Part shown: positions 18,401 through 64,000 of the stretch, in pieces
How positions within the stretch are numbered: the stretch's first letter is position 1
Layout: every line of letters starts with the position of its first letter
Assembly: GCA_964343605.1 (NCBI GenBank)
Contig: CAYFKJ010000002.1
Location: 629,176-693,175, forward strand
Reading direction: 5' to 3'
DNA: 64,000 nt
Source of the DNA: an uncultured Rhodospirillaceae bacterium
Lineage (GTDB): Bacteria > Pseudomonadota > Alphaproteobacteria > UBA2966
Translations under genes and position numbers: made by a program
The notes under the pieces: model-generated
Seen by the model: only the letters and a program-made list of their open reading frames with translations
The model's database searches: none
What the model was told of the DNA's origin: nothing

Positions 18401-18580
18401 GCCTCTAGTTATTCCGGCACGCATGGGAGATGCAATCGGGCAGGAACTCGCTGAATTCCGCGGGTCGCTTTTCCTATGGCCCGTGTCGCGACCGGGATAG
18501 AATAGCGCCCAAGCCTGGGGCGAACTGCCCCAGGTAGAAATCGGGGAGCCGCCGGGAACCCCCGCCCGGCGTTTGGTTCA

Positions 18581-19831: not shown

Positions 19832-19832
19832 C

Positions 19833-20117
19833 ATGCTGATCATCGAGTGCCCCTGGTGCGGCCCCCGCGATGAGGCCGAGTTTCAATACGGCGGCGAGGC
19901 CCATATCGTGCGTCCGGAAAAACCGGCGGAACTGACGGACGAGCAATGGGCCGAGTACCTCTTCATGCGCACCAACACCAAGGGCCGCTTCCTTGAACGC
20001 TGGATGCACAGCGCCGGATGCCGGCGTTGGTTCAACAGCGTGCGCAACACCGCCACCAACGAAATCGAGGCCGTCTACCGCATGGGCGAGCAGCCGCCCG
20101 GGGACGATGGCGCATGA
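19833..20117 (+). CDS. soxD: sarcosine oxidase subunit delta
   Basis: 94 aa with MLIIECPWCGPRDEAEF, the typical SoxD zinc-ribbon start. It lies between soxB and soxA, and its stop overlaps the soxA ATG (ATGA). Confidence 0.88.
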   Translation: MLIIECPWCGPRDEAEFQYGGEAHIVRPEKPAELTDEQWAEYLFMRTNTKGRFLERWMHSAGCRRWFNSVRNTATNEIEAVYRMGEQPPGDDGA

Positions 20118-23100: not shown

Positions 23101-23149
23101 AACCGGTACTGTGTTCTACGACCCTGAAGGGGAGAGGCTCCATGGCTGA
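20114..23149 (+). CDS. soxA: sarcosine oxidase subunit alpha
   Basis: About 1010 aa with an N-terminal 2Fe-2S-like/NAD region, an FAD Rossmann (VLVVGGGPTGLAAA) and a C-terminal GcvT-like folate-binding domain. Confidence 0.9.
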   Translation: MSIQSHRVRVEQAPAARIDRSKALWFTFNGRRYQGFEGDTLASALVANGVRLVGRSFKYHRPRGLFAAGSEEPNAIVQVESGAQTLPNLRATQVELYDGLTADSVNAWPSVDFDIGVVNDLASRLLPAGFYYKTFMWPAGWWMTYEHVIRRAAGLGIAPPSGDPDTYDHMHVHCDVLVVGGGPTGLAAALAAGRTGARVIIADEQSELGGALLSSRAQVDNAPGLEWVQSTLSELTEMAEVRVMPRTTAFGHYDHNYIGLLERRSDHLGPGRGGDNITRQRIWKVRAGQVIHAGGAIERPLVFAGNDRPGVMLASGAAAYVNRWAASPGRRAVIFANNDSAYAAAADLVDAGVAVEALIDVRGEPGMDARTQVEARDIEILTGYAVVGTRGRRAVEGVDVMRLNEDGTGLNVGDRKIECDLVAVSGGWSPAVHLHCHAGGKVAYDAIQGCFVPGATTQAARSAGAANGQFELAECLSSGWQAGADAADAQGFRKPGRAPKPPSAEFVSTAPPRHLWTVPAKPGRQNGVKRFVDLQHDVTDADIRLAAREGYQSVEHLKRYTTLGMGTDQGKTSNVPGLAILAEELEKPIPEVGTTTFRPPYTAVTMGAIAGRHVGQMLDPLRRSPMHHWHEDHGAAFEDVGQWKRPWFYPREGEDIHAAVDRECLAARNAIGILDATTLGKIDIQGPDAAEFLNRIYTNAWSKLEVGRCRYGLMLGEDGMIMDDGVTSRIAENRYLMTTTSGNAAAVLGWLEEWLQTEWPDLRVYCNSISEYWATLTISGPLARNLLAELCTDIDLSADAFPFMSWREGTVAGTPARIFRISFTGEVSYEINVGASHGLGLWQTLMTAGEKYGITPYGTESMHVLRAEKGYIIVGQDTDGTMTPGDCGMDWIVSKKKPDFIGKRSLSRPDTVRGDRKQLVGLYTEDPLQVLPEGAQIVDDPDAALPMPMIGHVTSSYHSANLGRSIALAVVKGGLGRMGETVHLPLENGRTARAEITGTVFYDPEGERLHG

Positions 23150-23747
23150 TCCCTTGAGGCAAAGCGCCCTGGCGCATCTCCATCTCATCGCCCGGGCGGA
23201 AGCTTCGCCGGCCGATGCCGGGGTGGTTCTGGGTGAGCGAGGATTCCGCAGTCAATGGACATTGCGCGGGCATTTCGAAGATGAAGTGTTTACTGCCGCG
23301 GTCTTAAGCGAAACCGGCAGCGCGCCGCCGCTCAAGCCCAATACGGTTCATGCCAGCGGCGGCATCGAGGTGCTGTGGCTCGGTCCCGACGAATGGCTGG
23401 TCGTGGGGCCGGACGGCTCCGAGGTCGGTAAAAGGCTGGGCGAAGCCCTTAAGGACACGCATGCCGCGGCAACCGAAGTTAGCGAAAGCCGAACGTTGAT
23501 AGCGTTGTCCGGTCCCCATGCGCGCGATGTCTTGGCGAAGGGCTGTGCCCTTGATCTGCATCCCAGCAAATTTGCCGCCGGTCAGTGCGCCCAGTCGACG
23601 CTCGGCCATATCCACATTATTCTGCATCAGCGAACGAACGAGCCTGAGTTCGACATATTTGTCCATCGCAGCTTCGCCGAATCCCTGTGGCAGTGGCTGG
23701 AAGACGCCGCCGCCGAATACGGCGTGGCGATTTCAAACCCCTCATAA
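23142..23747 (+). CDS. soxG: sarcosine oxidase subunit gamma
   Basis: 201 aa directly after soxA with an 8-nt overlap, carrying the SoxG family signature. Confidence 0.85.
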   Translation: MADPLRQSALAHLHLIARAEASPADAGVVLGERGFRSQWTLRGHFEDEVFTAAVLSETGSAPPLKPNTVHASGGIEVLWLGPDEWLVVGPDGSEVGKRLGEALKDTHAAATEVSESRTLIALSGPHARDVLAKGCALDLHPSKFAAGQCAQSTLGHIHIILHQRTNEPEFDIFVHRSFAESLWQWLEDAAAEYGVAISNPS

Positions 23748-34916: not shown

Positions 34917-34931
34917 CGACGGGAGGATGGA

Positions 34932-45979: not shown

Positions 45980-46091
45980 ACAAAACGGCAATCATTGGTC
46001 GATCAAACGATGAATGATGAATGTTTGGGATAGGGACAGCCAAGGGGCTGTCCCTGTTCTTTGCTTCGACGAGTAGAACGGGAGAAAGCGC

Positions 46092-46658: not shown

Positions 46659-46713
46659 GCCCCAAGAACCAACACCGTCCGATCGTTGTCGGAGTGACGG
46701 AGTACGCCAAAGA

Positions 46714-48081: not shown

Positions 48082-48105
48082 TTTTGAGTACATACGGTCA
48101 AGCTT

Positions 48106-50733: not shown

Positions 50734-52314
50734 TCAGTAGTTCTTGTCGGGAATCGATGCCTTCTTGTCATTGACGAACGCCTGCAAGGCTTCGTCGACG
50801 GCGGGATCGATTTCCGGTGCTTCGTAGTCTGACAAACGTTGTTTCCAAATGGCGTTTGCCCGCTGTGCGGCGTCCAGGGAACCCTCCGCTTCCCATTGCT
50901 CGAATGAGTTGTTGTCGGCGACGGAAGAACGATAGAACGCCGTTTCAAAATGCGCTTGCGTATGCGTGCAGCCGAGATAGTGGTTGCCCGGCCCGACCTC
51001 GCGCACCGCATCCAGGGCCTGGGCGTCTTCCGAAAGATCGATGCCCTTGGCCAGCACCGCCATCATGCCGCATTGATCTTCGTCCATGATGAATTTCTCA
51101 TAGGACGAAACAAGGCCGCCTTCCAGCCAGCCGGCGCCGTGCAGCATGAAATTGACGCCGCCCATCAATGCCGGCCAGATCGATTGGGCGCTCTCGTAGG
51201 CGGCCTGGGCATCCGGCAGCTTGGCGGCGCAAAGCGACCCGCCGGAGCGGAAGGGCAATCCCAGCCGCCGCGACAACTGCGCCGCCGCCAGCAAAACCTT
51301 GTTGGGTTCCGGCGTCCCGAAGGTCGGTGCGCCGGACTGCATGGAAAGGGCGCTGGAAAACAGGCCGAACACGACCGGGGCGCCCGGGCGGACGAGTTGC
51401 GCAAAGGCCGCACCCGCCATGGCTTCGGCCAGCGCCTGCGCCAGGGTTCCGGCTTCCGATACCGGGCCCATGGCGCCGGACATGATGAACGGCGTCACGA
51501 TGACGGCCTGGTTGGCGCGTGCATAGGCCTTGAGCGCCCCCAGCATCGTGCCGTCGAAGGTCATGGGAGAATTAACGTTGATGAGGCTCATCACCACCGT
51601 GTTGTCGGCGACGAATTGCTCGCCGAACAGGATTTCCGCCATGCGCACGGTATCCTTGGCCCTTTCAGGATGCGTCACCGACCCCATGAAGGGTTTGTCC
51701 GACCAACGCATGTGGGCGTAAACCATGTCGAGGTGGCGTTTGTTGACCGGCTTGTCCACCGGTTCGCACACCGTGCCGCCCGAGTGGTGGATATGTGGCG
51801 ACTGGTAGGCCAGCTTCACGAAATTCTCGAAGTCTTCGAGAGTCGCATAACGGCGGCCCTGCTCGAGGTCGCGGACGAAGGGCGGTCCGTACACGGGCGC
51901 GATGACGGTTGCGTCGCCGCCGATCTGAACGCTGCGTGCGGGATTGCGCGCGTGCTGGGTAAAGACGGCGGGCGCCGTGGCGATGAGTTTGCGGGCAAGA
52001 CCGGCCGGCAGACGTACGCGGGTGCCCTCGATGTCGGCGCCGGCCTGTTGCCACAGCGCCAGGGCTTCTTCATCGTCCCGGAACTCGATGCCGATCTCCG
52101 ACAGGATGGTGTCGGCGTTGGCCTCGATGATCGCCAGGCCTTCTTCCGAGAGGATTTCGCTTAGCGGAATGTTGCGCCGGATATAGGGCGCGCTTTCGAC
52201 CGCGGCGGCGCTTCGGGCGGCGCGGCGGGCGTCTCGTCCGCCCCTTCGTCCACCTTCCCGGCCCGGCCGGGCTTCTGCTGCATCACTCATGGTCGGGTCC
52301 TCCCCGTAGCTCAA
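50734..52314 (-). CDS. MttB-superfamily (non-pyrrolysine) quaternary-amine:corrinoid methyltransferase, glycine-betaine/MtgB-like
   Basis: About 500 aa TIM-barrel trimethylamine-methyltransferase family with no in-frame amber codon, as in the betaine-type members. Arg-rich N-terminal extension. Confidence 0.8.
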   Translation of the reverse strand: MSYGEDPTMSDAAEARPGREGGRRGGRDARRAARSAAAVESAPYIRRNIPLSEILSEEGLAIIEANADTILSEIGIEFRDDEEALALWQQAGADIEGTRVRLPAGLARKLIATAPAVFTQHARNPARSVQIGGDATVIAPVYGPPFVRDLEQGRRYATLEDFENFVKLAYQSPHIHHSGGTVCEPVDKPVNKRHLDMVYAHMRWSDKPFMGSVTHPERAKDTVRMAEILFGEQFVADNTVVMSLINVNSPMTFDGTMLGALKAYARANQAVIVTPFIMSGAMGPVSEAGTLAQALAEAMAGAAFAQLVRPGAPVVFGLFSSALSMQSGAPTFGTPEPNKVLLAAAQLSRRLGLPFRSGGSLCAAKLPDAQAAYESAQSIWPALMGGVNFMLHGAGWLEGGLVSSYEKFIMDEDQCGMMAVLAKGIDLSEDAQALDAVREVGPGNHYLGCTHTQAHFETAFYRSSVADNNSFEQWEAEGSLDAAQRANAIWKQRLSDYEAPEIDPAVDEALQAFVNDKKASIPDKNY

Positions 52315-52484
52315 TCGTTACGAATATGGGGTCGCCCCTGTTTGGTGACTAACTTCCGCCCGACATCAAGTTGTGCAAAGCCGCCCATCCCGATCGAGGG
52401 TTCGGAACCGGCGTTGGATTTCAAAGGGGAGTTGATACAAGGTTTGTGCAATGATCTGCCGATTCCACTTCGAGGGAGACGTGA

Positions 52485-53261
52485 ATGTCTTTTTACGGGC
52501 TGCCGCCGGATGAAATGGCTGAAGCCATGCGCCACATAAACGCGGCGATCGAAATATACGTTCGGAATGATCAATCGGTATTGGCCGTCGACAATATGCT
52601 CGTCGCCCGGCGGACCTTGAGTTTCATGCGCGACAAAAAATTCGCCAAAATTATCGAGAAGTACTGTTACGACGAAAACGGCGCCGAAGTTCCGACGGAT
52701 CTGGTCAAGGTCTGGCGTCTGCACGTGTACGCCTGGTGCGCCCAAAATGCGCTAAAAATTGACGGCGACCTCGTTGAATGCGGCGTCCACATGGGATTGT
52801 ACTCCCTTGTGATGCTGGAATATCTCTCGCCGTTGCCAGAGGAAAAATCGCTTTACCTTTACGATACCTTCGAAGGGCTGGATGACGAGCTCTCGACGGA
52901 ACAAGAGCGGGATCAGGTCGAGGGTGTCTACGATATCGAGGATTGGTTCGAAGCCGTTTCCAACAGCTTTGCCGATTACTCTTGCGCCAAGCTGATCAAG
53001 GGTAGGGTCCCCGATATTCTCCATGAGAGCGCGCCGGAAAAGGTAGCTTTTCTGCATCTCGACATGAATTCGGCGAGTGCGGAAGTCGGCGCCATCGACT
53101 TCTTTCAAGACAGGCTTGCACCCGGTGCGATCATACTCATGGACGATTATGGCCGGACGGATCACGTCGAGCTGCATATTGCCTTGAGGGACTGGTTCGA
53201 GTTCGCCAAGCGGCCCATCGTCGAACTTCCAACCGGCCAGGGTCTCGCCCTCTGGCTTTAG
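52485..53261 (+). CDS. TylF/MycF-type class I SAM-dependent O-methyltransferase; low GC
   Basis: Macrocin-O-methyltransferase family pattern (VECGVHMGLYSL...LDMNSA...DDYG). Local GC is below the surrounding genes. Confidence 0.6.
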   Translation: MSFYGLPPDEMAEAMRHINAAIEIYVRNDQSVLAVDNMLVARRTLSFMRDKKFAKIIEKYCYDENGAEVPTDLVKVWRLHVYAWCAQNALKIDGDLVECGVHMGLYSLVMLEYLSPLPEEKSLYLYDTFEGLDDELSTEQERDQVEGVYDIEDWFEAVSNSFADYSCAKLIKGRVPDILHESAPEKVAFLHLDMNSASAEVGAIDFFQDRLAPGAIILMDDYGRTDHVELHIALRDWFEFAKRPIVELPTGQGLALWL

Positions 53262-53428
53262 GCCTTGGGCTTGCCGGGCCGGCTTGACTTGGGCGATGAC
53301 GGTATCGCGATAATTGGTGGCGGCGGTGTGCTAGTTCAGGCTAAGGCGGGTAAGCAAGATTGGCCGAAAGCGGACCTCGCCGGGTCCGCGGTGCATTGGG
53401 CGACCAAAGTGTCAGTTGGGGAAGAGCA

Positions 53429-55864
53429 ATGAAATCTCAAGCGCGAGTTGTGGTTATCGGCGGCGGCGTCGTCGGCGTCAGTACACTTTATCATCTGGCC
53501 AAGAAGGGCTGGTCCGACGTCGTCCTGTTGGAGCGCACGGAACTTACGGCGGGCTCCACCTGGCACGCGGCCGGATTGCTGCCGCTCTTCAACATGAGCT
53601 ACACGGTTGGCCAGATCCACAAGTACTCCGTCGATCTCTACAAGACGCTGGAGGCGGAAACCGGTCAGGACGTCAGCTTCCATGTCACCGGCAACTTGCG
53701 CCTAGCCACAAACAAGGAGCGCATGGACGAGTATCAGAAGTACTGCGGTACGGCCAACACCATCGGGGTCCCGTTTGAACTGATCACGCCCGCCGAAATC
53801 AAGGAGTTGTGGCCGCTTTGCAACGTGGAAGGCCTGGTTGGCGCGCTATACCACCCCGACGACGGCCACATCGCGCCGGTGGACGTGACGCAAGCCATGG
53901 CAACCGGCGCCCGCAACAACGGCGCCGAGATTTACCGCCAGACCCAGGTCGACGCCATCGAACAGAAACCGAACGGTGAATGGCTGATCAAAACCAACCA
54001 GGGCGACATTACCTGCGAGCACGTGGTTTCCTGCACCGGCAACTACGCCCGCCAAACCCTGGCCATGGTCGGGCTGGATATTCCCGTCATTCCGGTCGAG
54101 CACCAATACATCGTCACCGACGAGGTGCCGGATCTGGTGGAACGCAAGAAACAGGGCTTGCCCGAGATGGCGGTATTGCGCGAATCGGACGCCTCCTATT
54201 ACCTGCGTGAGGAGCGCCAGGGCTACATCCTAGGTCCCTACGAGAAGGGTGCGCCGGCGTGCTTCGTCGACGGCGTGCCGGAGACCTTCGGTCAGGACCT
54301 CTTCCCCGGCGATCTCGAACGCTTGATGCCCCACGTCGAAGCCGCCATCAACCGTGTACCGACCTTCGAGGACGCCGGCATTAAGGACATCGTCAACGGA
54401 CCAATCGCCTATACGCCGGACGGCAGCCCGATGGTCGGACCGGCCTGGGGGCTCAAAAATTTCTGGATGTCGGAAGGTCACAGCTTCGGCGTTACCGCCG
54501 CCGGCGGCGCCGGCTGGCAATTGGCCGAGTGGATCGTCGAGGGGGAACCGGGAATCGACATGATGGACGTCGATCCCCGCCGCTTTGGCCCGTACGCCAA
54601 CAAGGCCTATACCAAGGCCAAGAACGAGGAATGCTACGAGCACGTCTTCATCATCCATTATCCGGACGAGGAACGCCCAGCGGCGCGCCCCGCCAAACAA
54701 AGCCCGTGTCACGAACGCCTCGATGCCGAGGGCGCCGTCTGGGGCCAGCGTTATGGTTGGGAGCGGCCCAATTGGTTCGCCCCCGAAGGCGTCGAGCGCA
54801 AGGACGTCTGGAGTTTCCGTCGCAGCAATTACTTCGAACATGTCGGTAACGAATGCCGTGCCGTGCGCGAGGGCGTGGCGCTGATTGACCTCACCAGTTT
54901 CACCAAGCATCTGGTAACGGGTCCGGGCGCAGCCGACTATCTGGCCGGTCTCGTTTGCCGCAAGCTGCCGATCAAGATCGGCCGTATCAACCTGGCCCAC
55001 GCCCTGACGGCGAAGGGCGGCGTGCGCTCGGAGTTCACCATCATGCGCGAAGGGGAGGAACAGTACTTCCTCGTCAGCTCGGGTGCCGCCGAGCGCTTCG
55101 ACAACGACTACCTGACCAAGCATCTGCCGGATGACGGCAGCGTGCGGCTCGACAACATCACCACGGCCAACGGCTGTTTCGTCGTTGTGGGACCGAAATC
55201 GCGCGAGCTGATGGCGCGGATTTCCGATGCCGATTTCTCCAACGAAGCCTTTCCCTGGCTCACGGGACAGACCATCCAGCTCGGCATGGCCCGCACCAGG
55301 GCACTGCGCGTGAATTTCGTCGGCGAACTAGGCTGGGAACTGCATCATCCGATCGAGTACCAGAACCACATCTACGACACCTTGGTTGCCGCGGCCGAGG
55401 ATCTCGGCGGTCTATCCATGTGCGGCATGCGCGCGATGGACAGCTTGCGTATCGAAAAGTCCTACCGCATGTGGGCCCAGGACCTGACGCGCGACTACAC
55501 GGTGCTGGAAGCCGGCCTCGACCGTTTCGTCCACCTCGACAAGGGCGAATTCATCGGCCGCGAGGCCTTGGTTGCCCAGAAGGAAGCAGGCATTCCCAAT
55601 ACCTTTGTCACGTTGGAGGTCGACGCTGTCGATGCCGACGCCTGGGGATCGGAGCCCTTGTTCGTCGGCGATACCATGATCGGCCGCGCTACCGCCGGCG
55701 CCTATGGCCATTGCGTCGGCAAGAGCCTGGCGCTGGCCTACGTCCAGCCCGACTACGGCGCCGTCGGCACCGAAATGGAGATCAACATCCTCGGCGACCG
55801 CCGCGCCGCCCGCGTCATCGAAGAATCCCCCTGGGATCCGGAGAACGAGAGGTTAAGGGGATAG
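53429..55864 (+). CDS. dimethylglycine dehydrogenase-like (FAD DAO domain + GcvT folate-binding domain)
   Basis: VVVIGGGVVGVSTLYHLA FAD motif, covalent-FAD His region (STWHAAG) and a C-terminal aminomethyltransferase fold. Start moved to MKSQARV. Confidence 0.85.
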   Translation: MKSQARVVVIGGGVVGVSTLYHLAKKGWSDVVLLERTELTAGSTWHAAGLLPLFNMSYTVGQIHKYSVDLYKTLEAETGQDVSFHVTGNLRLATNKERMDEYQKYCGTANTIGVPFELITPAEIKELWPLCNVEGLVGALYHPDDGHIAPVDVTQAMATGARNNGAEIYRQTQVDAIEQKPNGEWLIKTNQGDITCEHVVSCTGNYARQTLAMVGLDIPVIPVEHQYIVTDEVPDLVERKKQGLPEMAVLRESDASYYLREERQGYILGPYEKGAPACFVDGVPETFGQDLFPGDLERLMPHVEAAINRVPTFEDAGIKDIVNGPIAYTPDGSPMVGPAWGLKNFWMSEGHSFGVTAAGGAGWQLAEWIVEGEPGIDMMDVDPRRFGPYANKAYTKAKNEECYEHVFIIHYPDEERPAARPAKQSPCHERLDAEGAVWGQRYGWERPNWFAPEGVERKDVWSFRRSNYFEHVGNECRAVREGVALIDLTSFTKHLVTGPGAADYLAGLVCRKLPIKIGRINLAHALTAKGGVRSEFTIMREGEEQYFLVSSGAAERFDNDYLTKHLPDDGSVRLDNITTANGCFVVVGPKSRELMARISDADFSNEAFPWLTGQTIQLGMARTRALRVNFVGELGWELHHPIEYQNHIYDTLVAAAEDLGGLSMCGMRAMDSLRIEKSYRMWAQDLTRDYTVLEAGLDRFVHLDKGEFIGREALVAQKEAGIPNTFVTLEVDAVDADAWGSEPLFVGDTMIGRATAGAYGHCVGKSLALAYVQPDYGAVGTEMEINILGDRRAARVIEESPWDPENERLRG

Positions 55865-55879
55865 ACATAAGTTTCGTCA

Positions 55880-56036
55880 ACACCGTCACTCCCGCGTAAG
55901 CGGATTGACCGGAGGGCGGCAGCCATAGAAAAACCAATGTCACCCCGGACTTGATCCGGGGTCCAGGTTGTATTTTTTCTAATTCCTGGGAACAAAAAAC
56001 TAAGACCTGGATTCCGGCATGCGCCGGAATGACGAT
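55880..56036. repeat. REP/MITE-like GC-rich hairpin repeat cluster, locus B
   Basis: Degenerate unit gtcactcccgcgTAAGcggattgacc, then caccccggaCTTGATccggggtc, then ggattccggcATGCgccggaatgacg. Lies between convergent genes. Confidence 0.55.
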
Positions 56037-56045
56037 GTTTTTCTG

Positions 56046-57509
56046 TTACCTGAACGCCGGTTCGTCGAAGCTGCGGAGTTTGCGGGAATGAAGGGTGTGT
56101 TCGGCGACGTTCTCGCGCATGGCGTTGAGCGTTTCGACGCCGATCTTCAGATGCTGGCTGACGCGCTCTTGATAAAATGCGTTGGCCATGCCGGGCAGTT
56201 TGATTTCGCCGTGCAGCGGTTTGTCCGAGACGCATAGGAGCGTGCCGTAAGGCACCCGCAGGCGGAAGCCGTTGGCGGCGATGGTGGCGCTTTCCATGTC
56301 GACGGCGATGGCGCGGGATTGGTTGAAGAACTCCGCCAGCTCGTCGTAATGCAGCTCCCAGTCGCGATCGTCGGTGGTGACGACGGTGCCGGTACGCAGG
56401 CGCTGTTTCATCTCCGCGCCCTGGACGCCGGTTATGCGGCCGAAGGCAGCGGTGAGCGCCACCTGGACCTCGGCGATGGGCGGTACCGGCACCCCGGTGG
56501 GCAGATCGTTGTCCAGCACGTGGTCCAGCCGCGAATAGGCGTGCGCCAGGACATAGTCGCCCAGCCGCTGGCTTCGCCGGAGGCCGCCGCAATGGCCGAT
56601 CATCAGCCAGCAGTGCGGCCTGAGCACGGCGATGTGGTCGGTGATGGTTTTGGCATTGGACGGCCCGACGCCGATGTTGACCAGCGTGATGCCCATGTGC
56701 TCGTCGGTCACGAGGTGATAGGCGGGCATCTGGGGCAACTTCTCGACGGGCGTTCCCGCCGAGGCTTCGTCCGTCAGGCGCGGGTTCGTCGTAACCGCGT
56801 TGCCCGGCTCGACGAAGGCACGGAAGGTATCGCCTTCGGCGACTTCCTTGCGGCCGTATTCGACGAACTCGTCGACATAACGCTGGTAGTTTGTGAACAA
56901 AACGAATCGCTGGAAGTGCCTCGGCGAGGTGCCGGTGTAGTGTCTGAGCCGCGAAAGCGAAAGGTCGACGCGTTCGGCGCCGAACAGCGACAGCGGTTTG
57001 ACTTCGTCCGCGGCGGAGCGGCGCGTGCCGTTGGCGATGCTGTCGTCGATCTGGGAAAGGTCCGGCAGGTGGAACATGTCCGCCAGCAGCGGCACCTCGT
57101 CGGCGTTGAGATCGGCGGTCAGGGATTCCATGGCGAATGTGAGGGGGATTTGCCGGTTGGAAATGCCGACCTGAATCGGACCGCCGTGGTTTTCCATCAG
57201 AAGCTGGAGCTGCTCCAGGTAATAGCTGCGGAAGAGCGCCGGCTGGGTGACCGTGGTGCCGTACTCACCGGGTTCGGAAACCGCGCCGTAGGCCAGGCCG
57301 CTCCGCGTTCCCGTCACGACCGACGGCACCTCGATCCCGATGTAGGGGTAGCAGGCGTCGACCTTGGGCAGGTCCTGCTCCCCGGCGACAAAGCGGTCGA
57401 AGTGCTTCTGCAGCAAGCCGCAGCCGTCGGCATAGATTTCGCTTATGCGGGCAACCGCTTCTTCGGGATCGGTATAGGGGCGGAGCTCCCTGATTTCACT
57501 ATCGGGCAC
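56046..57509 (-). CDS. amn: AMP nucleosidase
   Basis: I recall it as near-colinear with E. coli Amn (RLRHYTGT...FVLFTNYQRYVDEF...TLVNIGVGPSNAKTI...GHCGGLR...TGTVVTTDDR.WEL...AVDMESATIAA...YGTLLCVSDKPLHGEIKLPG...HSRKLR.F.EP.FR). I prefer the GTG start at 57509; the track ATG is 57584. Confidence 0.88.
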   Translation of the reverse strand: MPDSEIRELRPYTDPEEAVARISEIYADGCGLLQKHFDRFVAGEQDLPKVDACYPYIGIEVPSVVTGTRSGLAYGAVSEPGEYGTTVTQPALFRSYYLEQLQLLMENHGGPIQVGISNRQIPLTFAMESLTADLNADEVPLLADMFHLPDLSQIDDSIANGTRRSAADEVKPLSLFGAERVDLSLSRLRHYTGTSPRHFQRFVLFTNYQRYVDEFVEYGRKEVAEGDTFRAFVEPGNAVTTNPRLTDEASAGTPVEKLPQMPAYHLVTDEHMGITLVNIGVGPSNAKTITDHIAVLRPHCWLMIGHCGGLRRSQRLGDYVLAHAYSRLDHVLDNDLPTGVPVPPIAEVQVALTAAFGRITGVQGAEMKQRLRTGTVVTTDDRDWELHYDELAEFFNQSRAIAVDMESATIAANGFRLRVPYGTLLCVSDKPLHGEIKLPGMANAFYQERVSQHLKIGVETLNAMRENVAEHTLHSRKLRSFDEPAFR

Positions 57510-57676
57510 GTGTCGCTTTCTCAATTGTCGTCGAAGATGAAGGGCAATGATGCCCGATCGGGGCCGCGAGCACAATTGCGCCAAAACATTTCGTCGCGCA
57601 AAAAAGTTCTGGACCTGTCTACCGCTTCATAGTTGATGGTACGGGCTTTCCAACCCCAAACGATGAAGGAAAGCCA

Positions 57677-58153
57677 ATGTCCGAATTCAAAAGCAGCCGT
57701 ATTGAGGTCTCCCATGTTCAGCACCTGGACGGCACGTTGAGCGAAATATTCCCGTTGCTCTGCCCGACCCGCGAGTACGACTGGATCGAAAGTTGGGCCT
57801 GCGACCTGATCCATTCCAACTCCGGTATCGCGGAGAACAATTGCGTCTTCTCGACGGAGCTGCCCGACGGCGGCCTCGAATATTGGATCGTCAACCGTTT
57901 CGAACCCAACCGGACGATCGAGTTCGTGAAGTTCGCCGCCGGTCTCTACGTCGTGAAGTACGACATTACGCTCTCGCCCCTGCCGGACGGCCGTAGCGTG
58001 GCGGTCTGGAGCCAGATCATCACGGGTCTCTCGGAGGCCGGCAACGAGCTCATCGACAACTTTGACCGGGACGCCTTCCATGCCAAGTTCGAGCGCGTGG
58101 AAAAGGAGTTGAACCACTACCTCACCACGGGCCAAATGCTGGTCGCTGCATAA
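57677..58153 (+). CDS. SRPBCC (START/Bet v1-like) family protein
   Basis: About 158 aa helix-grip-like composition. Weak family assignment. Confidence 0.45.
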   Translation: MSEFKSSRIEVSHVQHLDGTLSEIFPLLCPTREYDWIESWACDLIHSNSGIAENNCVFSTELPDGGLEYWIVNRFEPNRTIEFVKFAAGLYVVKYDITLSPLPDGRSVAVWSQIITGLSEAGNELIDNFDRDAFHAKFERVEKELNHYLTTGQMLVAA

Positions 58154-58162
58154 AGGAACCAC

Positions 58163-58687
58163 ATGACGACCGTTGGAAGGCTGGCCCGGCGATTTGGGCT
58201 CTCACGGAGCACGTTGCTGTACTACGACCGGGAAGGCGTGCTCACGCCCTCCGGCCGTTCGGCCAAGGGCTATCGGGTCTACTCGGATGCCGACGCGGAA
58301 CGGCTTGAGCTGATCTGCCTCTATCGCAAGGCCGGTCTTTCATTGGATGCCATCAAACATGTGCTCAAACCGAGGGGCCGTGATCTCAACGCGGCGCTCA
58401 ACAAGCGGCTTGCCGAATTGAACGAGGAGGCCGATCGACTGCACGAACAACAAGCTCTGGTATTGTCTCTGCTCAAACGGGAGCCGCCGGAAATGCCCGG
58501 CCGGTTGGATCGTGAGGGTTGGTCCGACACGCTGGCGGCTTCTGGCTTCAGTGAAGAGGACATGCACGCCTGGCATATCGGCTTCGAAAAATTGGCGCCG
58601 AAAAAGCACCAGTCGTTTCTGGAGTACCTCGGAATCCCGGAGGACGAGATTAAAGAAATTCGGCGCTGGTCGAAGGATGGCCGCTAG
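58163..58687 (+). CDS. MerR family transcriptional regulator
   Basis: N-terminal MerR HTH (VGRLARRFGLSRSTLLYYDREGVL) and a coiled-coil dimerisation helix. Confidence 0.75.
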   Translation: MTTVGRLARRFGLSRSTLLYYDREGVLTPSGRSAKGYRVYSDADAERLELICLYRKAGLSLDAIKHVLKPRGRDLNAALNKRLAELNEEADRLHEQQALVLSLLKREPPEMPGRLDREGWSDTLAASGFSEEDMHAWHIGFEKLAPKKHQSFLEYLGIPEDEIKEIRRWSKDGR

Positions 58688-58705
58688 TCCGTCGCTGAAA
58701 CCTCT

Positions 58706-59806
58706 CTATTCGCCCGCTCGCCGGATGCCGAACAATTCGACGCTCTCCGCCTTGCCCCGCAATTCGTAGCCGCCGAGATCGACCGCCACCAGCTCGTCGG
58801 GGACAATTGTATTTTTGACGACGTCCGCGGAGGCGACGAGGTTGTAGCCCAGTTCACGGCAGGTCTTTTCAAGTCTTGCGGCCGTGTTCACCGTATCGCC
58901 GAAATATGAAATCTGCCGCTTCGAATCTCCGGTAAAGCCCGCCACGACCTGGCCGCAGTGCAGGCCCGCTCGAAACTTGGGAACGCGGCCGAACCGTGCC
59001 TGATAGATATCCGCCCGCCGGGTAATGATGTCCTCTATGGCGAAGAAACAACGCAGACAATTGGCGTTTCGCAGGCCGACGGTCAGCGGCCAGGTAATGA
59101 CCACCTCGTCGCCGATGTAACGGTGCGCCTCTCCTTGGTAATCAAGAATCGCCTCGTCAATGTCAAAATAGAATGTCGAGATCAAGTCATAGGCGCCGAG
59201 GTCGCCGAGTTCCTCCGCCATCGCCGTCGATGCTTCGATGTCCAGGAACAGAAAGACGCGCTCCTCGTAAATGCCGGAGCGATACCGCCCGAGGATAACG
59301 TTGGCCAACTGGCGGCCGCCGATCACGCGCCGGATGGTGACGAAAAACAGCAGCAGCGAGATCATCAGGAAGGTGGTGACGATATCCAGCGCCAGCGCGA
59401 TGTCGTGGTCGATTTGATAACCGAAATAGGTATCGGGTCCGGCCTCCGGATAGGCCAGGATCTCGTATGGCACAACAACGGCGGTGATGGTGACGAGGTA
59501 AACAGCAATACTGAGCGTCAGGCTTACCAGAAAGTGGGCGCGTCTTATTCTGCGCCCATAGCGCCCCTCTACGAACAGCAATTCGTAAGACGCAAGCAGC
59601 GCGCCGATCAACGCCCCGAGGATGGTCGCCTCCAGGAGATTCCGGTTGGTCACCTCCTGCCCCATGAGAGTTGAAATGAAGAAAATCGACGCAACGATCA
59701 GTCCCGCCAAACCGATTGAGACGGCGACGACGCTGCGCAGGCGGGCGATTGTTCGGCTGGAGACCACCATGTCAGACCACATACTCCGGGGACTCAACCA
59801 GGCCAT
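58706..59806 (-). CDS. membrane-anchored class III adenylate/guanylate cyclase
   Basis: 4-5 N-terminal TM helices, then a CHD catalytic domain (FLFLDIEASTAMAE...GDEVVITW...GLHCGQVVAG..GD....YFGDTVNTAARLE). Confidence 0.8.
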   Translation of the reverse strand: MAWLSPRSMWSDMVVSSRTIARLRSVVAVSIGLAGLIVASIFFISTLMGQEVTNRNLLEATILGALIGALLASYELLFVEGRYGRRIRRAHFLVSLTLSIAVYLVTITAVVVPYEILAYPEAGPDTYFGYQIDHDIALALDIVTTFLMISLLLFFVTIRRVIGGRQLANVILGRYRSGIYEERVFLFLDIEASTAMAEELGDLGAYDLISTFYFDIDEAILDYQGEAHRYIGDEVVITWPLTVGLRNANCLRCFFAIEDIITRRADIYQARFGRVPKFRAGLHCGQVVAGFTGDSKRQISYFGDTVNTAARLEKTCRELGYNLVASADVVKNTIVPDELVAVDLGGYELRGKAESVELFGIRRAGE

Positions 59807-60195
59807 GATATTCCGGTGAACGGATCATGTCGCCCCATGTAGGGCTTGAAATTTTCTTTCGAATTTGGGCAACAATTCGCAAAATTCGTACATTACGCTA
59901 CACCCCAGGATCGCTCTGTGGTAGATTTCAATTACGGATACTAGTTGGGGTATCGATCAGTAGGGAGGGCAGGTAACTGTATGGATCCACCGGACAGTTG
60001 TTTCGCCCCCTCTTATGAGGGCGGACGGTAGGCGACGAACTATTCCGCGGAATTTTGAAACTCGATGCTTTCACGATTTCAGTCGATTTTCGCCGCCCCG
60101 CTGACAACCTGACTACTGACCTACGGACGGCTAGTCCGTCCTGTATCAAGATCCCGGCTTTCCAGTTGGGACACGGCTATTAGGCCAAATACAAG

Positions 60196-60240
60196 AGCAG
60201 CCCCGCCCGGGATAAAGTCCGAGACGGGGCTTGCTTTTTG
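60196..60240 (+). terminator. possible intrinsic terminator (GC hairpin + T-run) at the end of a candidate small RNA or leader
   Basis: gccccg...cggggc stem followed by ttgcttttt, about 55 nt upstream of the DUF899 start. The loop is long (about 19 nt), so confidence is low. Confidence 0.3.
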
Positions 60241-60295
60241 GCGAATCCGACAAAATTTCATATGCAGTGATCATTGTTTCACACGGGGGCCAACG

Positions 60296-60997
60296 ATGGG
60301 CGTGCATCACGACAAGTCATTTCCGGGCGAAAACCTGAAATACCGCAAAGCCCGCGACGAATTGCTCGCTGCGGAAAAAGCGCTGCGGCGGCAGGTGGCG
60401 GAAGTCGCCGAAATGCGGAAGAACCTGCCCGCCGGCGGCCCGATCCCTACCGATTACGTATTCGAGGAGGGAGGGACCGATATTGGCGATACGGCAACCG
60501 TCAAGCAAACGCACTTTTCGGATTTGTTCGCAGACGGCAAGGACAGCCTGATCATCTACAGCTTCATGTACGGGCCCAACGCCGACAATGCCTGCCCCAT
60601 GTGCACGTCGTTGCTCGACAGCCTCAACGGCGCCGCCCCCCACGTAACCGATCGCGTGAACCTTGCGGTCGTTGCACGCTCCTCCATCGGCCGCATTCGG
60701 GATTGGGGCCGGGCGAGGGGCTGGAACAATCTCAGGCTCCTATCGTCGGCGAACAACACCTACAACATCGACTACTTCGCCGAAGGGCCCGAGGGCGATC
60801 AGTGGCCTGACATCAACGTTTTCGTGCGCCGAGACGGCGTCATTCACCACTACTACAATGCGGAGCTGTTTTTCGCGGAGACGGAGGAAGGCCAGCATCC
60901 CCGCCATGCCGACATGATTTGGCCGTTGTGGAATATCTTTGATCTCACGCCCGACGGTCGGGGTGACAACTGGTTCCCGAAATTGGATTACGGGTAG
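60296..60997 (+). CDS. DUF899 thioredoxin-fold family protein
   Basis: Characteristic DUF899 length (233 aa) and the CPMCTSLLD redox-like motif. Confidence 0.7.
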   Translation: MGVHHDKSFPGENLKYRKARDELLAAEKALRRQVAEVAEMRKNLPAGGPIPTDYVFEEGGTDIGDTATVKQTHFSDLFADGKDSLIIYSFMYGPNADNACPMCTSLLDSLNGAAPHVTDRVNLAVVARSSIGRIRDWGRARGWNNLRLLSSANNTYNIDYFAEGPEGDQWPDINVFVRRDGVIHHYYNAELFFAETEEGQHPRHADMIWPLWNIFDLTPDGRGDNWFPKLDYG

Positions 60998-61014
60998 TTT
61001 GTCTAAAAACCGAC

Positions 61015-61128
61015 AATCCGTCATTCCCGCGCAAGCGGGAATCCATGCCGTTACGGATAAATTTGAAACCTCGTCCCGAAAATCCTCTGCTCAGCCATGG
61101 ATCCCGGATCAAGTCCGGGATGACGAAA
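61015..61128. repeat. REP/MITE-like GC-rich hairpin repeat cluster, locus C
   Basis: gtcattcccgcgCAAGcgggaatccatgccg, then about 45 nt, then ggatcccggaTCAAGtccgggatgacg. This is the same family as loci A and B. Lies between convergent genes. Confidence 0.55.
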
Positions 61129-61141
61129 TAAATTTGGGCAC

Positions 61142-62149
61142 CTACCCCGCGATCGCCTGCGCATCCTGATCGATTTGCGGCGGACGACGCTCGGCTCGCG
61201 GGGTGTGTCCGAAGTGGTCGCGGTAGCACTTTGTGAAGTGCGAGGCGGAGACGAAGCCGCAGGCCAGCGCCACGGCCAGGATCGAGAGGTCGGTCTGCAG
61301 CAGCAGGAGGCGGGCGCGGTTGAGGCGCAATTCCAGGTAATAGCGCGTTGGCGTCTTGTCGAAATACTTGCGGAACAGGCGTTCGAGGTGACGGGTGGAT
61401 AGACCCGCCGCCTCGGCCAGTTGGGCGCACGATTGCGGTTCTTCGAGATTGTCTTCCATGTGGGCCACGATGGACAGCAGCTTCGGGTGGCTGGTGCCGA
61501 GGCGGAACCTGAGTGGCATGCGCTGATGGTCGTGCCTGTCGCGAATGCGTTCGTGCAGCAACTGATCGGCGACCTGAGAGGTGATGTCGTGGCCGTAATC
61601 CATGGTGATGATGTTGAGCATCATGTCGAGCGATGCCGTGCCGCCCGAACATGTGAAGCGGTCGCGGTCGATCTCGAACAGTTCCGACGTGACTTCAAGG
61701 TCGGGGTAACGTTCGGCAAAGCCGGCCAGATTTTCCCAATGGATGGTGCAGCGGTAATTGTTGAGTAGGCCCGCCCGGGCAAGTACGGCGCTGCCGGCGC
61801 AAAGCGCTCCCAATTTGGCGCCGCGGGAACCCAACCGCCGCAGCCAGCCGAGCGCCTTGCGGTCTTCGTAGGTGTGGGAGCCGAGGCCGCCGCAGACGAC
61901 GATGAAGGGGTGGTTGTCGATCTCGGAAATAGCGTGATCGGCGGGCATTCCAATGCCGTTGCTGGCAGCCACCGGACCGCCGTCGACCGAAAACAGTTTC
62001 CATTCGTATAGCCGGTGCCCTGTGACGTACTGGGCTAATCTTAGGGGTTCGATGGCTGACGTTAGGGCAATCATCGAGAAATTCGGCACCATAAAGAAGC
62101 CGATTCGCCTGGGAACACTGCCGCCGTCAAGCCGTTCCATGATCTGCAC
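61142..62149 (-). CDS. GlxA/GbdR-like AraC-family transcriptional regulator with N-terminal DJ-1/PfpI (GATase1-like) domain
   Basis: N-terminal class-I amidotransferase-like sensor domain (IVVCGG...LGALCAG) and a C-terminal double AraC HTH (LAEAAGLSTRHLERLFRKY...). Confidence 0.8.
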   Translation of the reverse strand: MQIMERLDGGSVPRRIGFFMVPNFSMIALTSAIEPLRLAQYVTGHRLYEWKLFSVDGGPVAASNGIGMPADHAISEIDNHPFIVVCGGLGSHTYEDRKALGWLRRLGSRGAKLGALCAGSAVLARAGLLNNYRCTIHWENLAGFAERYPDLEVTSELFEIDRDRFTCSGGTASLDMMLNIITMDYGHDITSQVADQLLHERIRDRHDHQRMPLRFRLGTSHPKLLSIVAHMEDNLEEPQSCAQLAEAAGLSTRHLERLFRKYFDKTPTRYYLELRLNRARLLLLQTDLSILAVALACGFVSASHFTKCYRDHFGHTPRAERRPPQIDQDAQAIAG

Positions 62150-62333
62150 GCTCCACCGTCAAGCCACCAAAAGCATGATTATCACGGGCGAATGATACTC
62201 CAAAGCGTGTCGTTGTCTGGCTAAAAAATGTCGTGGCGGCGCTAGCGGCAATACCCCTTGAAATCCCATATGGATTTCGATTGAAACAGTCTGGAATGAT
62301 GCCGGGCGGGCGTTGGCTTTAAGGGTGGTTCAC

Positions 62334-63056
62334 ATGGCCGATGATGACGATCTCGATCTCTCTACATTGAGTGATGACGATCTCGTGCAGCAGATGCACG
62401 ACGACCTCTACGATGGCCTCAAGGAGGAAATCGAAGAGGGTGTGAACATTTTGCTGGAGCGCGAGTGGGAAGCCTATGACGTGCTGACCAAGGCGCTGGT
62501 CGAAGGCATGCGGATCGTCGGTATTGATTTCCGCGACGGCATCCTGTTCGTGCCGGAGGTCCTGATGGCGGCCAACGCCATGAAGGCCGGCATGGCGATC
62601 CTGCGTCCTTTGCTGGCCGAAAGCGATGCCCCGCAGATGGGCAAGATGGTGATCGGCACCGTAAAGGGCGACATCCACGACATCGGCAAGAATCTCGTCT
62701 CCATGATGATGGAAGGTGCCGGCTTCGAAGTCATCGACATCGGCATCAACAATCCTGTGGAGGATTACCTGGCGGCGATCGAGGAACACCGGCCCGATAT
62801 CCTCGGCATGTCGGCCCTGCTCACGACGACCATGCCCTACATGAAGGTGGTCATCGACACGTTGAAGGAAAAGGGCATCCGCGATGATTATGTCGTGCTG
62901 GTTGGGGGCGCACCTTTGAATGAGGCCTTTGCCGAAAGCATCGGCGCCGACGCCTATTGCCGGGACGCCGCCGTGGCAGTTGAGACCGCCAAGGACTTGA
63001 TGGGCCGGCGTCAGGGCTCGGGCGTTGCCCGCATGCAGGCGGCCGAGGTGGGATAG
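62334..63056 (+). CDS. corrinoid (cobalamin-binding) protein of a methyltransferase system
   Basis: B12-binding cap helix domain followed by a Rossmann B12-binding domain with the DxHxxG motif (GDIHDIGKN) and the SALLTT/GG motifs. Confidence 0.8.
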   Translation: MADDDDLDLSTLSDDDLVQQMHDDLYDGLKEEIEEGVNILLEREWEAYDVLTKALVEGMRIVGIDFRDGILFVPEVLMAANAMKAGMAILRPLLAESDAPQMGKMVIGTVKGDIHDIGKNLVSMMMEGAGFEVIDIGINNPVEDYLAAIEEHRPDILGMSALLTTTMPYMKVVIDTLKEKGIRDDYVVLVGGAPLNEAFAESIGADAYCRDAAVAVETAKDLMGRRQGSGVARMQAAEVG

Positions 63057-63059
63057 ACC

Positions 63060-63677
63060 ATGCCGGCGCCGTCGCTCTTGTTGGCCTGCGGCGCCCTGGG
63101 ACGTGAGGTCATCGCGGTGCTGGATGCCGGTGGCATTGACGGTCTCGAAGTGACCTGTCTGCCGGCCAACCTGCATAATAAACCCCAACTCATTGCCGAA
63201 GCGGTGCGCGAGAAGGTGCGCAAGCATCACGACGAGTACGAGAACATCTTCGTGCTCTATGCCGATTGCGGCACCGGCGGTGACCTGGACAAGGTCTGTG
63301 ACGAGGAGGGCGTTGTGCGTATTCCCGGCGCCCACTGCTATGAGTTCTACGCCGGAGCGTCGGCATTCGAACAATTGGCCGACGCCGAGCCCGCGACCTT
63401 TTACCTGACGGATTACCTGACCCGGCATTTCGAAACGCTGATCATGGTCGGATTGGGGCTTGACCGCTTCCCTGAACTGCTGCCTGACTACTTCGGCAAC
63501 TACAGCCGTGTGGTCTACCTGGCGCAAACCGATGATCCTGAACTCGACGAACAAGCTCGAAAGGCGGCCGAAAAACTCGGTTTGGCGTACGAACGCCGAT
63601 TTACGGGCTATGGCGAGCTGGCCGAATTCATTGTCGGGGCGGCTGAGAGCGAACCGCAAAAAACGCTCGTTTCCTGA
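63060..63677 (+). CDS. DUF1638 domain protein
   Basis: 205 aa family member. By my recollection DUF1638 is typically encoded next to corrinoid-dependent methyltransferase genes. 4 nt after the corrinoid gene. Confidence 0.6.
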   Translation: MPAPSLLLACGALGREVIAVLDAGGIDGLEVTCLPANLHNKPQLIAEAVREKVRKHHDEYENIFVLYADCGTGGDLDKVCDEEGVVRIPGAHCYEFYAGASAFEQLADAEPATFYLTDYLTRHFETLIMVGLGLDRFPELLPDYFGNYSRVVYLAQTDDPELDEQARKAAEKLGLAYERRFTGYGELAEFIVGAAESEPQKTLVS

Positions 63678-63691
63678 CAGGCGGAGCTGAG

Positions 63692-64000
63692 ATGTACGCG
63701 CTGCGCCGCTGGTCCGTTCGCCACGCGCGTGGGATGGAACGGACATATCTGATCTTTCGTCCCGTGTTCGAAGCGTTCCGCCCGCTTTGGAGGTTGATCG
63801 GCGTCCGCCGCCTCGAACGTCCCATCGCCGGTGTCGAGAGCGCCATCAAGGGCGCCCTGTTCGACTGCCAGATGTGTGGCCAGTGTGCGCTCACGGATAC
63901 CGGTATGTCGTGTCCGATGAACTGCCCTAAGAGTTTGCGCAATGGCCCCTGCGGCGGCGTTCGCGCAGACGGCAGTTGCGAGGTCGATTCCGGCATGGCC
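63692..64000 (+). CDS. methylenetetrahydrofolate-reductase C-terminal-domain-like (Cys-rich zinc-ribbon) protein, 5' portion (continues past window end)
   Basis: ATG at 63692 after a GGAG RBS. Cys cluster FDCQMCGQCAL...CPMNCPKSLRNGPCGG typical of MTHFR_C/MetV-like proteins. Not in the ORF track because it runs off the edge. Confidence 0.5.
   Translation, partial: MYALRRWSVRHARGMERTYLIFRPVFEAFRPLWRLIGVRRLERPIAGVESAIKGALFDCQMCGQCALTDTGMSCPMNCPKSLRNGPCGGVRADGSCEVDSGMA

Follow-up and report, generated by a model that had tools for sequence, protein, structure and literature searches.

Glycine betaine ranks among the major osmolytes and is also a major nutrient; the route that demethylates it by way of cobalamin connects its turnover with the demand for vitamin B12 and with the synthesis of methionine. 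In 2018, a split MetH was described in Phaeobacter inhibens (Price et al. 2018, PMC5764234), and work that built upon it subsequently demonstrated, in Ruegeria pomeroyi DSS-3, that the glycine betaine demethylase MtgBCD(E) is also a split methionine synthase (Mausz et al., PNAS 2025, PMC12478193). In R. pomeroyi the system comprises a methyltransferase of the PF06253 family, a corrinoid protein that stands alone, a methyltransferase with a pterin-binding domain, a DUF1638 protein, a second MetF and an activase resembling RamA. The cobalamin route in aerobes was established in 2025 (PMC12478193), the homologous system having been studied by genetics and proteomics in both R. pomeroyi and P. inhibens (PMC12478193, PMC5764234); in S. 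meliloti, the genes for these components were noted to be colocalized (PMC12478193).

Three further groups of described systems share individual parts of this arrangement with the locus considered here. The MtgB/MtgC/MtgA proteins of Desulfitobacterium hafniense, which transfer methyl groups from glycine betaine to THF (2QNE, 9YCE; PMC13080624), share its presumed chemistry, its three-component logic and the MttB-family TIM barrel. Type II MetVF of acetogens (Clostridium ljungdahlii, C. formicoaceticum; PMC8760232) likewise has a small, cysteine-rich PF12225 subunit encoded directly upstream of MetF. Finally, the regulators GbdR, CdhR and SouR, which act in betaine and carnitine catabolism in Pseudomonas aeruginosa, also combine a DJ-1/PfpI domain with HTH_18, and are also encoded divergently from a catabolic operon.

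The stretch of DNA that was analysed (64,000 nucleotides from an uncultured alphaproteobacterium whose closest relatives with names are Rhodospirillales-like, hereafter 'the window') probably encodes the greater part of a pathway, dependent on cobalamin and tetrahydrofolate, for the demethylation of glycine betaine to glycine. The locus belongs to the system already described, because its layout matches that of R. pomeroyi MtgB, MtgC and MtgD together with DUF1638, RamA and MetF2; it is a real but ordinary case of that system, and adds nothing fundamental to it. Two features of the window, a divergent GbdR-like regulator with a candidate direct-repeat operator and a MetV-like, putatively Fe-S subunit, are unmentioned in the 2025 paper (PMC12478193). 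Beyond that account, the analysis contributes a candidate operator common to Alpha-, Beta- and Gammaproteobacteria, Chloroflexi and Actinobacteria, the predicted Fe-S (MetV-type) character of the methyl-THF-oxidising enzyme, and a conserved Cys4/His2 signature in DUF1638.

Gene content and conserved linkage

The MttB-family, DMGDH-type, GlxA/AraC, corrinoid protein, DUF1638 and MTHFR_C-like genes named in the earlier note are all present approximately where it had placed them (Table 1), with two corrections to their arrangement. The MttB and dimethylglycine dehydrogenase genes, which had been called neighbours, are near one another but are not adjacent, a TylF-like gene lying between them; this gene was considered as a member of the pathway and rejected, being confined to close relatives. 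The corrinoid operon, which had been said to follow the GlxA/AraC regulator, indeed adjoins it, but the regulator is divergent and on the opposite strand. Also located in the stretch that separates MttB from the regulator (52.3-61.1 kb) are genes for AMP nucleosidase, MerR, an adenylate cyclase and DUF899, which are unrelated to the pathway. The MttB gene is 8.8 kb from the operon, whereas the corresponding genes of R. pomeroyi are scattered further.

Table 1. Features of the window relevant to the predicted pathway
Feature	Position	Strand	Basis or remark
soxB, soxD, soxA, soxG (heterotetrameric sarcosine oxidase)	18581..23747	+	Pfam DAO, SO_alpha_A3 + GCV_T + Fer2_4, SoxG
SoxD ORF	19833-20117	+	within soxBDAG
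Second-best match to the operator repeat	18464..18488	+	about 90 nt upstream of soxB; suggestive
MtgB-type methyltransferase, non-pyrrolysine MttB family	50734..52290	-	PF06253, PDB matches, public gene call from 52290 (518 aa); ORF 50734-52314
TylF-like methyltransferase	52485-53261	+	between the MttB and DMGDH-type genes
DMGDH-type flavoenzyme with THF-binding GcvT domain	53429..55864	+	DAO + FAO_M + GCV_T + GCV_T_C; gene call, 811 aa
GlxA/AraC regulator (GATase1-like + HTH), GbdR-like	61142..62140	-	DJ-1_PfpI + HTH_18; divergent from mtgC
Direct repeat TGTCGT-N15-TGTCGT, candidate operator	62208..62234	+	roughly 100 nt ahead of the mtgC start
MtgC, stand-alone corrinoid (cobalamin-binding) protein	62334..63056	+	B12-binding_2 + B12-binding (PF02607 + PF02310)
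DUF1638 protein, proposed corrinoid-reactivation accessory	63060..63677	+	PF07796, 108 bits
Small Cys-rich subunit resembling MetV (DUF5981/MTHFR_C), truncated at the window end	63692..64000	+	PF12225, 69 bits

In the proposed scheme, the MtgB-type enzyme would transfer a methyl group of glycine betaine to the Co(I) form of MtgC, with release of dimethylglycine, and MtgD, whose gene lies immediately beyond the end of the window, would pass that group from methyl-Co(III) to tetrahydrofolate; a MetV/MetF-type methylene-THF reductase, running in the oxidative direction, would then convert methyl-THF to methylene-THF. An ATP-dependent RamA/RACo-like activase would return the Co(II) corrinoid to Co(I), with DUF1638 participating in some manner, and the DMGDH-type enzyme followed by SoxBDAG would take off the last two methyl groups. 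The divergent GbdR-like regulator probably governs the mtgC operon through a direct repeat with a period of 21 bp. If R. pomeroyi is a guide, the synthesis of methionine may also draw on MtgC and MtgD. The sequences demonstrate the set of genes, their order, their motifs and their conserved linkage; the identity of the substrate, the direction of flux, the regulation and the dual role are inferred.

Comparison with approximately 90 related loci (80 of them from a genome scan, of which 53 were well-flanked) demonstrated that this gene order is conserved. It recurs in S. meliloti (whose proteins are 49-81% identical to those of the window), in Azoarcus KH32C, in Paracoccus aminovorans and in loci from the genome scan; of the 53 well-flanked loci, 48 have MtgC, 43 have MtgD and 45 have RamA. 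DMGDH-type orthologues adjoin either the MttB gene or the mtgC operon in six relatives (L090, L091, L092, L003, L046 and L056), and the MttB genes linked to the operon are repeatedly found near DMGDH-type genes, soxBDAG and OpuAC/ProV betaine transporters. In one locus (L092) the operon, a DMGDH-type gene, MttB and soxGADB are contiguous. The earlier suggestion that the distant MttB is of the cognate type is borne out, in the nearest relatives, by proteins 76-78% identical to it that adjoin the same regulator and operon (L010, L090 and L092), the regulator being the immediate neighbour of MttB in L090 and L010. L086, a close relative, lacks the MttB/DMGDH module at this position. The corrinoid/THF route had been called uncommon and only lately recognised in aerobes; it was described, with genetics, in 2025 (PMC12478193), and it is not rare in genomes, since relatives of DUF1638 are encoded in at least 590 matched stretches of a collection of species-representative genomes.

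The corrinoid protein and its operon

The corrinoid protein displays the cobalt-ligand motif DxHxxG as D113-x-H115-x-x-G118 (encoded at 62670-62687), and its SxL and GG motifs are also readable. Its identity to the counterparts in S. meliloti and Paracoccus is 81-82% (81% to S. meliloti MtgC), and, as a difference from the D. hafniense system, it falls below the cut-offs of both models for MtgC of anaerobes (213 against 370, and 187 against 310).

A metagenome contig (L001), which overlaps the window by 3540 nt at 100% identity, carries the operon onward, in the order MTHFR, MtgD and RamA/RACo-like activase. Both of the proteins that the earlier note had expected downstream, a methyl-THF:corrinoid methyltransferase and a RamA-like activase, were found there. 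The first, MtgD, contains the pterin-binding domain PF00809 and scores 354 bits on NF005719 (cut-off 259), and is of the MetH/AcsE-like Pterin_bind type, which distinguishes it from the THF methyltransferase of D. hafniense. The activase contains Fer2, RACo_linker and Raco_middle domains, and its full-length counterpart in the relative L086 (660 aa) includes RACo_C_ter.

On the same contig, the MetV-like protein that is cut by the window end is full length (149 aa, PF12225 87 bits), and its stop codon lies 4 nt before the start of MetF, a PF02219 protein of 341 aa encoded directly upstream of mtgD. A search of the PDB with the MetV-like protein gave no match. Eight cysteines of the small subunit are invariant across 46 loci, a number that fits the two [4Fe-4S] clusters predicted for MetV. 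Judged by its sequence, the operon MTHFR is of the MetV/MetF (Fe-S) type. The host, presumably an aerobe, encodes O2-dependent enzymes and in this differs from both the acetogens and D. hafniense; the reaction catalysed here would presumably be the oxidation of methyl-THF to methylene-THF.

The roles of DUF1638 and of the MTHFR-C-like protein had been called unknown, which for DUF1638 is not wholly so: mutants in it are methionine auxotrophs, and co-vary with RamA (PMC5764234). Six of its residues (C10, C33, H39, C70, H92 and C93) are invariant in 67 sequences, and in the AF2 model (pLDDT 93) the invariant Cys and His residues are predicted to lie at, or just past, the C-terminal ends of successive beta-strands. 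Neither a specific fold match nor a relative of solved structure was found for DUF1638, and the best match to the window protein in the genome collection is 64-67% identical. The mtgC operon here contains no PF13769 gene, whereas 45 of 53 related loci have one; fusions of PF13769 occur both with DUF1638 and with RamA.

A more far-reaching interpretation of these two proteins would be that they form a previously unrecognised redox module, enabling Co(I)-dependent methyl transfer in oxygen-respiring cells, in which DUF1638 acts as a metal- or Fe-S-containing electron partner of the RamA-like activase and the electrons from MetV-MetF pass to an acceptor above the potential of NAD+, with the whole operon under a GbdR-type regulator acting on the 21-bp-period repeat. 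The PF13769 fusions with both partners, DUF1638 and RamA, hint that a physical complex may exist. In its entirety this interpretation is speculative, and we consider it rather unlikely.

The regulator, its candidate operator and methionine synthesis

The resemblance of the regulator to GbdR extends to its DJ-1_PfpI and HTH_18 architecture and to a score of 400 bits on the NCBIfam GbdR equivalog NF052371, but that score is under the cut-off of 480, so the resemblance noted earlier stops short of equivalence. In 17 of the 53 well-flanked loci, a homologue of this GlxA-type protein is encoded no more than 10 kb from the operon. The predicted target of the regulator would also differ from that of GbdR, in that it would govern a route through cobalamin and not the one through the GbcAB oxygenase.

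Of 70 related loci, 54 have the pattern GTCG-N17-GTCG on the sense strand upstream of mtgC (consensus TGTCGY-N15-TGTCGY), while other spacings of the GTCG pair occur in 0-6 of the same loci and shuffled sequences give a mean of 0.5. A position weight matrix trained without the window sequence places its top match within the window at 62208-62234, although the matrix is a weak one, on which shuffled sequence scores 11-20. This repeat is proposed to be the operator of the GlxA-type regulator. With its predicted GTCG(C/T) half-sites in direct repeat and its 15-bp spacer, it fits operators of the GbdR/CdhR type, such as the CdhR site GGTCGC-N15-GGTCGC (PMC5806209), and the common architecture and half-site layout suggest a regulator resembling GbdR in its mode of action without being its equivalog.

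The match upstream of soxB (18464-18488) is an exact GTCG-N17-GTCG and scores 14.3 on the matrix; it is a possible operator shared with mtgC, and suggestive only, because shuffles reach similar scores. Upstream of the MttB and DMGDH genes of the window the repeat is absent (best scores 3.2 and -4.2), as it is upstream of the MttB orthologues in 18 other loci. A single operator common to the mtgC operon and the MttB/DMGDH group is consequently not supported, and neither is co-regulation of the two gene groups.

That the MttB promoter is without the mtgC operator speaks for the alternative that survives best, according to which mtgC-DUF1638-metVF-mtgD-ramA would be mainly a split cobalamin-dependent methionine synthase replacing MetH, with the MttB gene 10 kb away encoding just one of several optional methyl donors and no dedicated partner. 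The mtgC and mtgD mutants of R. pomeroyi are methionine auxotrophs, which also favors this alternative. Against it, the operon includes a second MTHFR together with a subunit resembling MetV, the regulator paired with it is of the GbdR-like catabolic kind, and in relatives it adjoins MttB, DMGDH, sox and betaine transporter genes; furthermore, the 64-kb window contains no PF02574 homologue that would correspond to the homocysteine-binding module MtgE. The two roles are in any case compatible, both having been demonstrated in the 2025 paper (PMC12478193). As an account of the operon's main function, methionine synthesis retains an appreciable likelihood, while falling short of being probable.

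The methyltransferase and its substrate

The MttB-family protein, for which glycine betaine is the proposed substrate, matches PF06253 across the whole model (779 bits) and is 69% identical to an S. meliloti protein (PDB 4yyc) encoded beside mtgC. When it is aligned with D. hafniense MtgB, three residues of the glycine-betaine site, Y97, R312 and H348, have Y142, R356 and H392 as their counterparts, the latter two pairs corresponding to the carboxylate contacts R312 and H348. The aromatic pair Y97/F356, which serves cation-pi binding, is incomplete, since F356, the fourth residue in contact with glycine betaine, is replaced by G400; a tryptophan four residues upstream, W396, is invariant in the MttB orthogroup, and might substitute for the missing aromatic residue.

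The replacement of F356 by glycine means that the substrate could differ, and the aromatic pair is what varies among MttB-family enzymes of differing specificity. An alternative substrate would be another quaternary amine, such as proline betaine, carnitine, gamma-butyrobetaine or choline, with the DAO-GcvT enzyme acting on the resulting product. In keeping with this, as many as seven MttB paralogues of unassigned substrate occur in roseobacters, and the window also contains a gamma-butyrobetaine-dioxygenase/TmpA-like gene. On the other side, Y97, R312 and H348 are kept in all 18 of the operon-linked MttB proteins (59-78% identical to that of the window), while Y97 is lost in paralogues of lower identity; the linkage with DMGDH-type genes, soxBDAG and OpuAC/ProV transporters is recurrent; and the S. 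meliloti cluster that encodes the 69% identical protein is the one described as MtgBCDE in the 2025 paper. A substrate other than glycine betaine is accordingly judged improbable.

The remaining reading, that the protein is a true trimethylamine methyltransferase requiring pyrrolysine, has in its favor only the name of the Pfam family and the generic public label 'trimethylamine methyltransferase family protein', and can be set aside as next to inconceivable, in agreement with the earlier description of the protein as non-pyrrolysine: its frame is free of in-frame stops, and hence of an amber codon, its score on TIGR02369 is 260 bits (cut-off 525), and it matches the true MttB structures 7xcl/7xcm at 132 bits as compared with 772 bits for 4yyc and approximately 421-422 bits for D. 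hafniense MtgB (2qne/9yce).

Gene content of the locus and its continuation

All of the genes named in the earlier note were found in the window as domain matches and open reading frames. The MttB-family methyltransferase, whose gene begins at 52290 in public gene calls, is free of a pyrrolysine stop, as had been proposed, and the corrinoid protein carries the DxHxxG Co-ligand motif. The description of the methyltransferase gene as lying beside dimethylglycine dehydrogenase held only in part: a dimethylglycine-dehydrogenase-type (DMGDH-type) gene is indeed near, but a TylF-like gene intervenes, which is probably not a member of the pathway, since it was found only in close relatives (78% identical in one of them, L089) and is absent from the other loci.

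Features of the system in the window
Feature	Position	Strand	Remarks
soxB, soxD, soxA, soxG	18581-23747	+	
MttB-family methyltransferase	50734-52314	-	full-length Pfam MTTB match, 779 bits; no internal stops
TylF-like SAM methyltransferase	52485-53261	+	between MttB and DMGDH-type genes; divergent from MttB
DMGDH-type enzyme	53429-55864	+	DAO, FAO_M, GCV_T and GCV_T_C domains
GlxA/AraC regulator	61142-62140	-	NCBIfam GbdR model 400 bits, below cut-off of 480; divergent from corrinoid-protein gene
Corrinoid protein (MtgC)	62334-63056	+	cap and B12-binding domains; DxHxxG at 62670-62687
DUF1638	63060-63677	+	followed by a DUF5981/MTHFR_C gene interrupted by the window end

The genes at 56.0-61.0 kb (encoding AMP nucleosidase, a 158-aa reading frame, MerR, adenylate cyclase and DUF899) are unrelated to the pathway. 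The 158-aa frame (57677-58153, + strand), which also adjoins a MerR gene in the relative L086, and a second frame of 389 aa (25033-26202, + strand) matched no Pfam or NCBIfam model. A 475-aa antisense frame (62319-63746, - strand) overlapping the corrinoid and DUF1638 genes was taken to be a shadow reading frame typical of G+C-rich DNA.

A metagenome contig (L001), identical to window positions 60461-64000 across 3540 nucleotides (100% identity), carries the operon onward through a full 149-aa DUF5981 protein, a 341-aa MTHFR, a pterin-binding methyl-THF:corrinoid methyltransferase (NF005719, 354 bits, above the cut-off of 259), and a protein with a 2Fe-2S domain and the RACo linker and middle regions. 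In L086, whose DUF1638 protein is 92% identical to that of the window, the RACo-type protein is complete at 660 aa, with RACo_C_ter included. The prediction that a methyl-THF methyltransferase and a RamA-like activase would follow downstream was therefore borne out. Directly 3' of ramA in L086, among close relatives of the window genome, lies a gene of the glutathione-dependent formaldehyde-activating enzyme (GFA) family (14984-15388).

A described aerobic system and its probable MttB partner

In aerobic Ruegeria pomeroyi, MtgC and the methyltransferase MtgD were demonstrated to be essential for growth on glycine betaine and also for methionine synthesis, and levels of two PF06253 proteins, of DUF1638 and RamA, and of a second MetF increased on betaine (Mausz et al. 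PNAS 2025, PMC12478193). The corresponding genes of Sinorhizobium meliloti were reported to be colocalized (PMC12478193), and the gene order of that locus is the same as in the window. Because of that work and the matching gene order, the window locus is a member of an already described kind of system. The window corrinoid protein scored below the cut-offs of models of MtgC from anaerobes, in agreement with the placement of aerobic MtgC in a separate lineage (PMC12478193).

A scan of species-representative genomes by means of a DUF1638 alignment gave at least 590 matching stretches that code for a relative; 80 loci were retained, and on these the homologues of the window proteins were placed. 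In Alpha-, Beta- and Gammaproteobacteria as well as in Chloroflexi and Actinobacteria, the gene order MtgC-DUF1638-(PF13769)-(DUF5981-MTHFR)-MtgD-RamA recurred; 53 of the loci were well flanked, and of these 48 contain MtgC, 43 MtgD and 45 RamA. At 18 of the 80 mapped loci, an MttB protein 59-78% identical to that of the window is encoded within 10 kb of the operon, the remaining paralogues at these loci being merely 24-44% identical. In L010 and L090, which are the closest loci, the MttB gene immediately adjoins that of the regulator (for L010, 78% identity in MttB, 70% in the regulator and 89% in MtgC). S. meliloti and Paracoccus aminovorans have MttB and the corrinoid gene in divergent orientation, and in a further relative, L092, MttB forms a single contiguous cluster with the operon, a DMGDH-type gene and soxGADB. 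At L091, MttB and a DMGDH-type gene diverge from each other, and genes for an OpuAC betaine-binding protein and a homocysteine methyltransferase (PF02574) are nearby. The S. meliloti homologue corresponds to PDB 4yyc (772 bits to the window protein).

Given the tight linkage of MttB to the operon in these relatives, the window layout is a loosened form of an arrangement that is compact elsewhere; even among close relatives the MttB/DMGDH module differs in place, being kept at this position in L089 and absent from it in L086. The downstream genes and this linkage support the proposed cobalamin/THF demethylation of betaine. The observation is confirmed, and the system is a genuine and coherent one, ordinary among its kind; its interest is confined to small additions and to the roles of DUF1638 and the MetV-like (DUF5981) subunit.

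The MttB region is immediately preceded by genes for TRAP transporter components DctP and DctM and an amidase (44735-49434, + strand); they are kept together with MttB in L089, where gene calls add DctQ. Two U32 peptidase genes and an SCP2 gene (28844-31436, - strand), a trio that also adjoins the P. aminovorans mtgC operon (L004), resemble the genes of the UbiU/UbiV/UbiT set, by which ubiquinone is made without oxygen, and hint at a facultative rather than strictly aerobic host.

Substrate and regulation

In MtgB of Desulfitobacterium hafniense, glycine betaine is contacted by Y97 and F356 (cation-pi) and by R312 and H348 (carboxylate) (PMC13080624). Residues Y142, R356 and H392 of the window MttB align with Y97, R312 and H348; F356 is not kept, the aligned residue being G400, with W396 four residues upstream. 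The whole operon-linked orthogroup shares a common Y/R/H pattern with GWLExGL, and in lower-identity paralogues Y97 is replaced by Ser or Gly. Because of this contact-residue pattern and the repeated linkage to DMGDH-type, sox and betaine transporter genes, glycine betaine is the most likely substrate predicted for the window enzyme.

A TauD-family dioxygenase whose N-terminal domain is GBBH-like is encoded at 27563-28714 (- strand); it scored 292 bits as gamma-butyrobetaine dioxygenase and 276 bits as TmpA (2-trimethylaminoethylphosphonate dioxygenase), both below cut-offs. Either activity would supply the carnitine/betaine pool. An M24 creatinase/prolidase-like gene (23763-24980, + strand), directly 3' of soxG and with a similar gene flanking the operon in L090, might be a source of sarcosine; every NCBIfam match fell far under its cut-off.

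No regulator is mentioned in PMC12478193. Upstream of mtgC, a TGTCGT-N15-TGTCGT repeat (62208-62234) constitutes a candidate operator, with the layout of the GGTCGC half-sites and 15-bp spacer of the GbdR/CdhR/SouR group (PMC5806209). In 54 of 70 related loci, an exact GTCG-N17-GTCG stands on the sense strand no more than 330 nucleotides ahead of mtgC, as compared with 0-6 loci for each other spacing from 10 to 25 and a mean of 0.5 in shuffled sequence; it was present in 24/26 loci with a GlxA homologue and 30/44 without. A scan with a weight matrix, weak in itself and trained without the window, gave its highest score in the window to the mtgC site and its second highest to one about 90 nucleotides upstream of soxB. 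No such repeat was found upstream of the MttB or DMGDH genes, in the window or in other loci, which leaves shared control of the two gene groups unsupported.

Conserved cysteines in the DUF5981 and DUF1638 proteins

The DUF5981 protein contains eight cysteines that are invariant across 46 loci, and its gene lies immediately 5' of MetF, a pairing that resembles the type II MetV/MetF reductases of acetogens; two [4Fe-4S] clusters are predicted for acetogen MetV (PMC8760232). No specific function was proposed for DUF1638 by Price et al. (PMC5764234). Its invariant residues include C10, C33, H39, C70, H92 and C93, as well as a DCGTGG motif, and a confident AlphaFold model (pLDDT 93.2) predicts a Rossmann-like alpha/beta fold in which the invariant Cys/His residues would sit at or just past the C-terminal ends of strands.

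Next after DUF1638, 45/53 well-flanked loci have a small PF13769 ('Virulence_fact') gene (for example, L003 15588-15923), which is missing from the operons of the window and its closest relatives (L086, L087, L090 and L010). One database protein (P0082) combines this domain with DUF1638, and in Terrarubrum it forms a fusion with RamA (L005 11756-14038). Elsewhere in the window, a DUF169 protein and then a PhyH-family dioxygenase are encoded at 34119-35762 (+ strand), apparently unrelated to the betaine finding.
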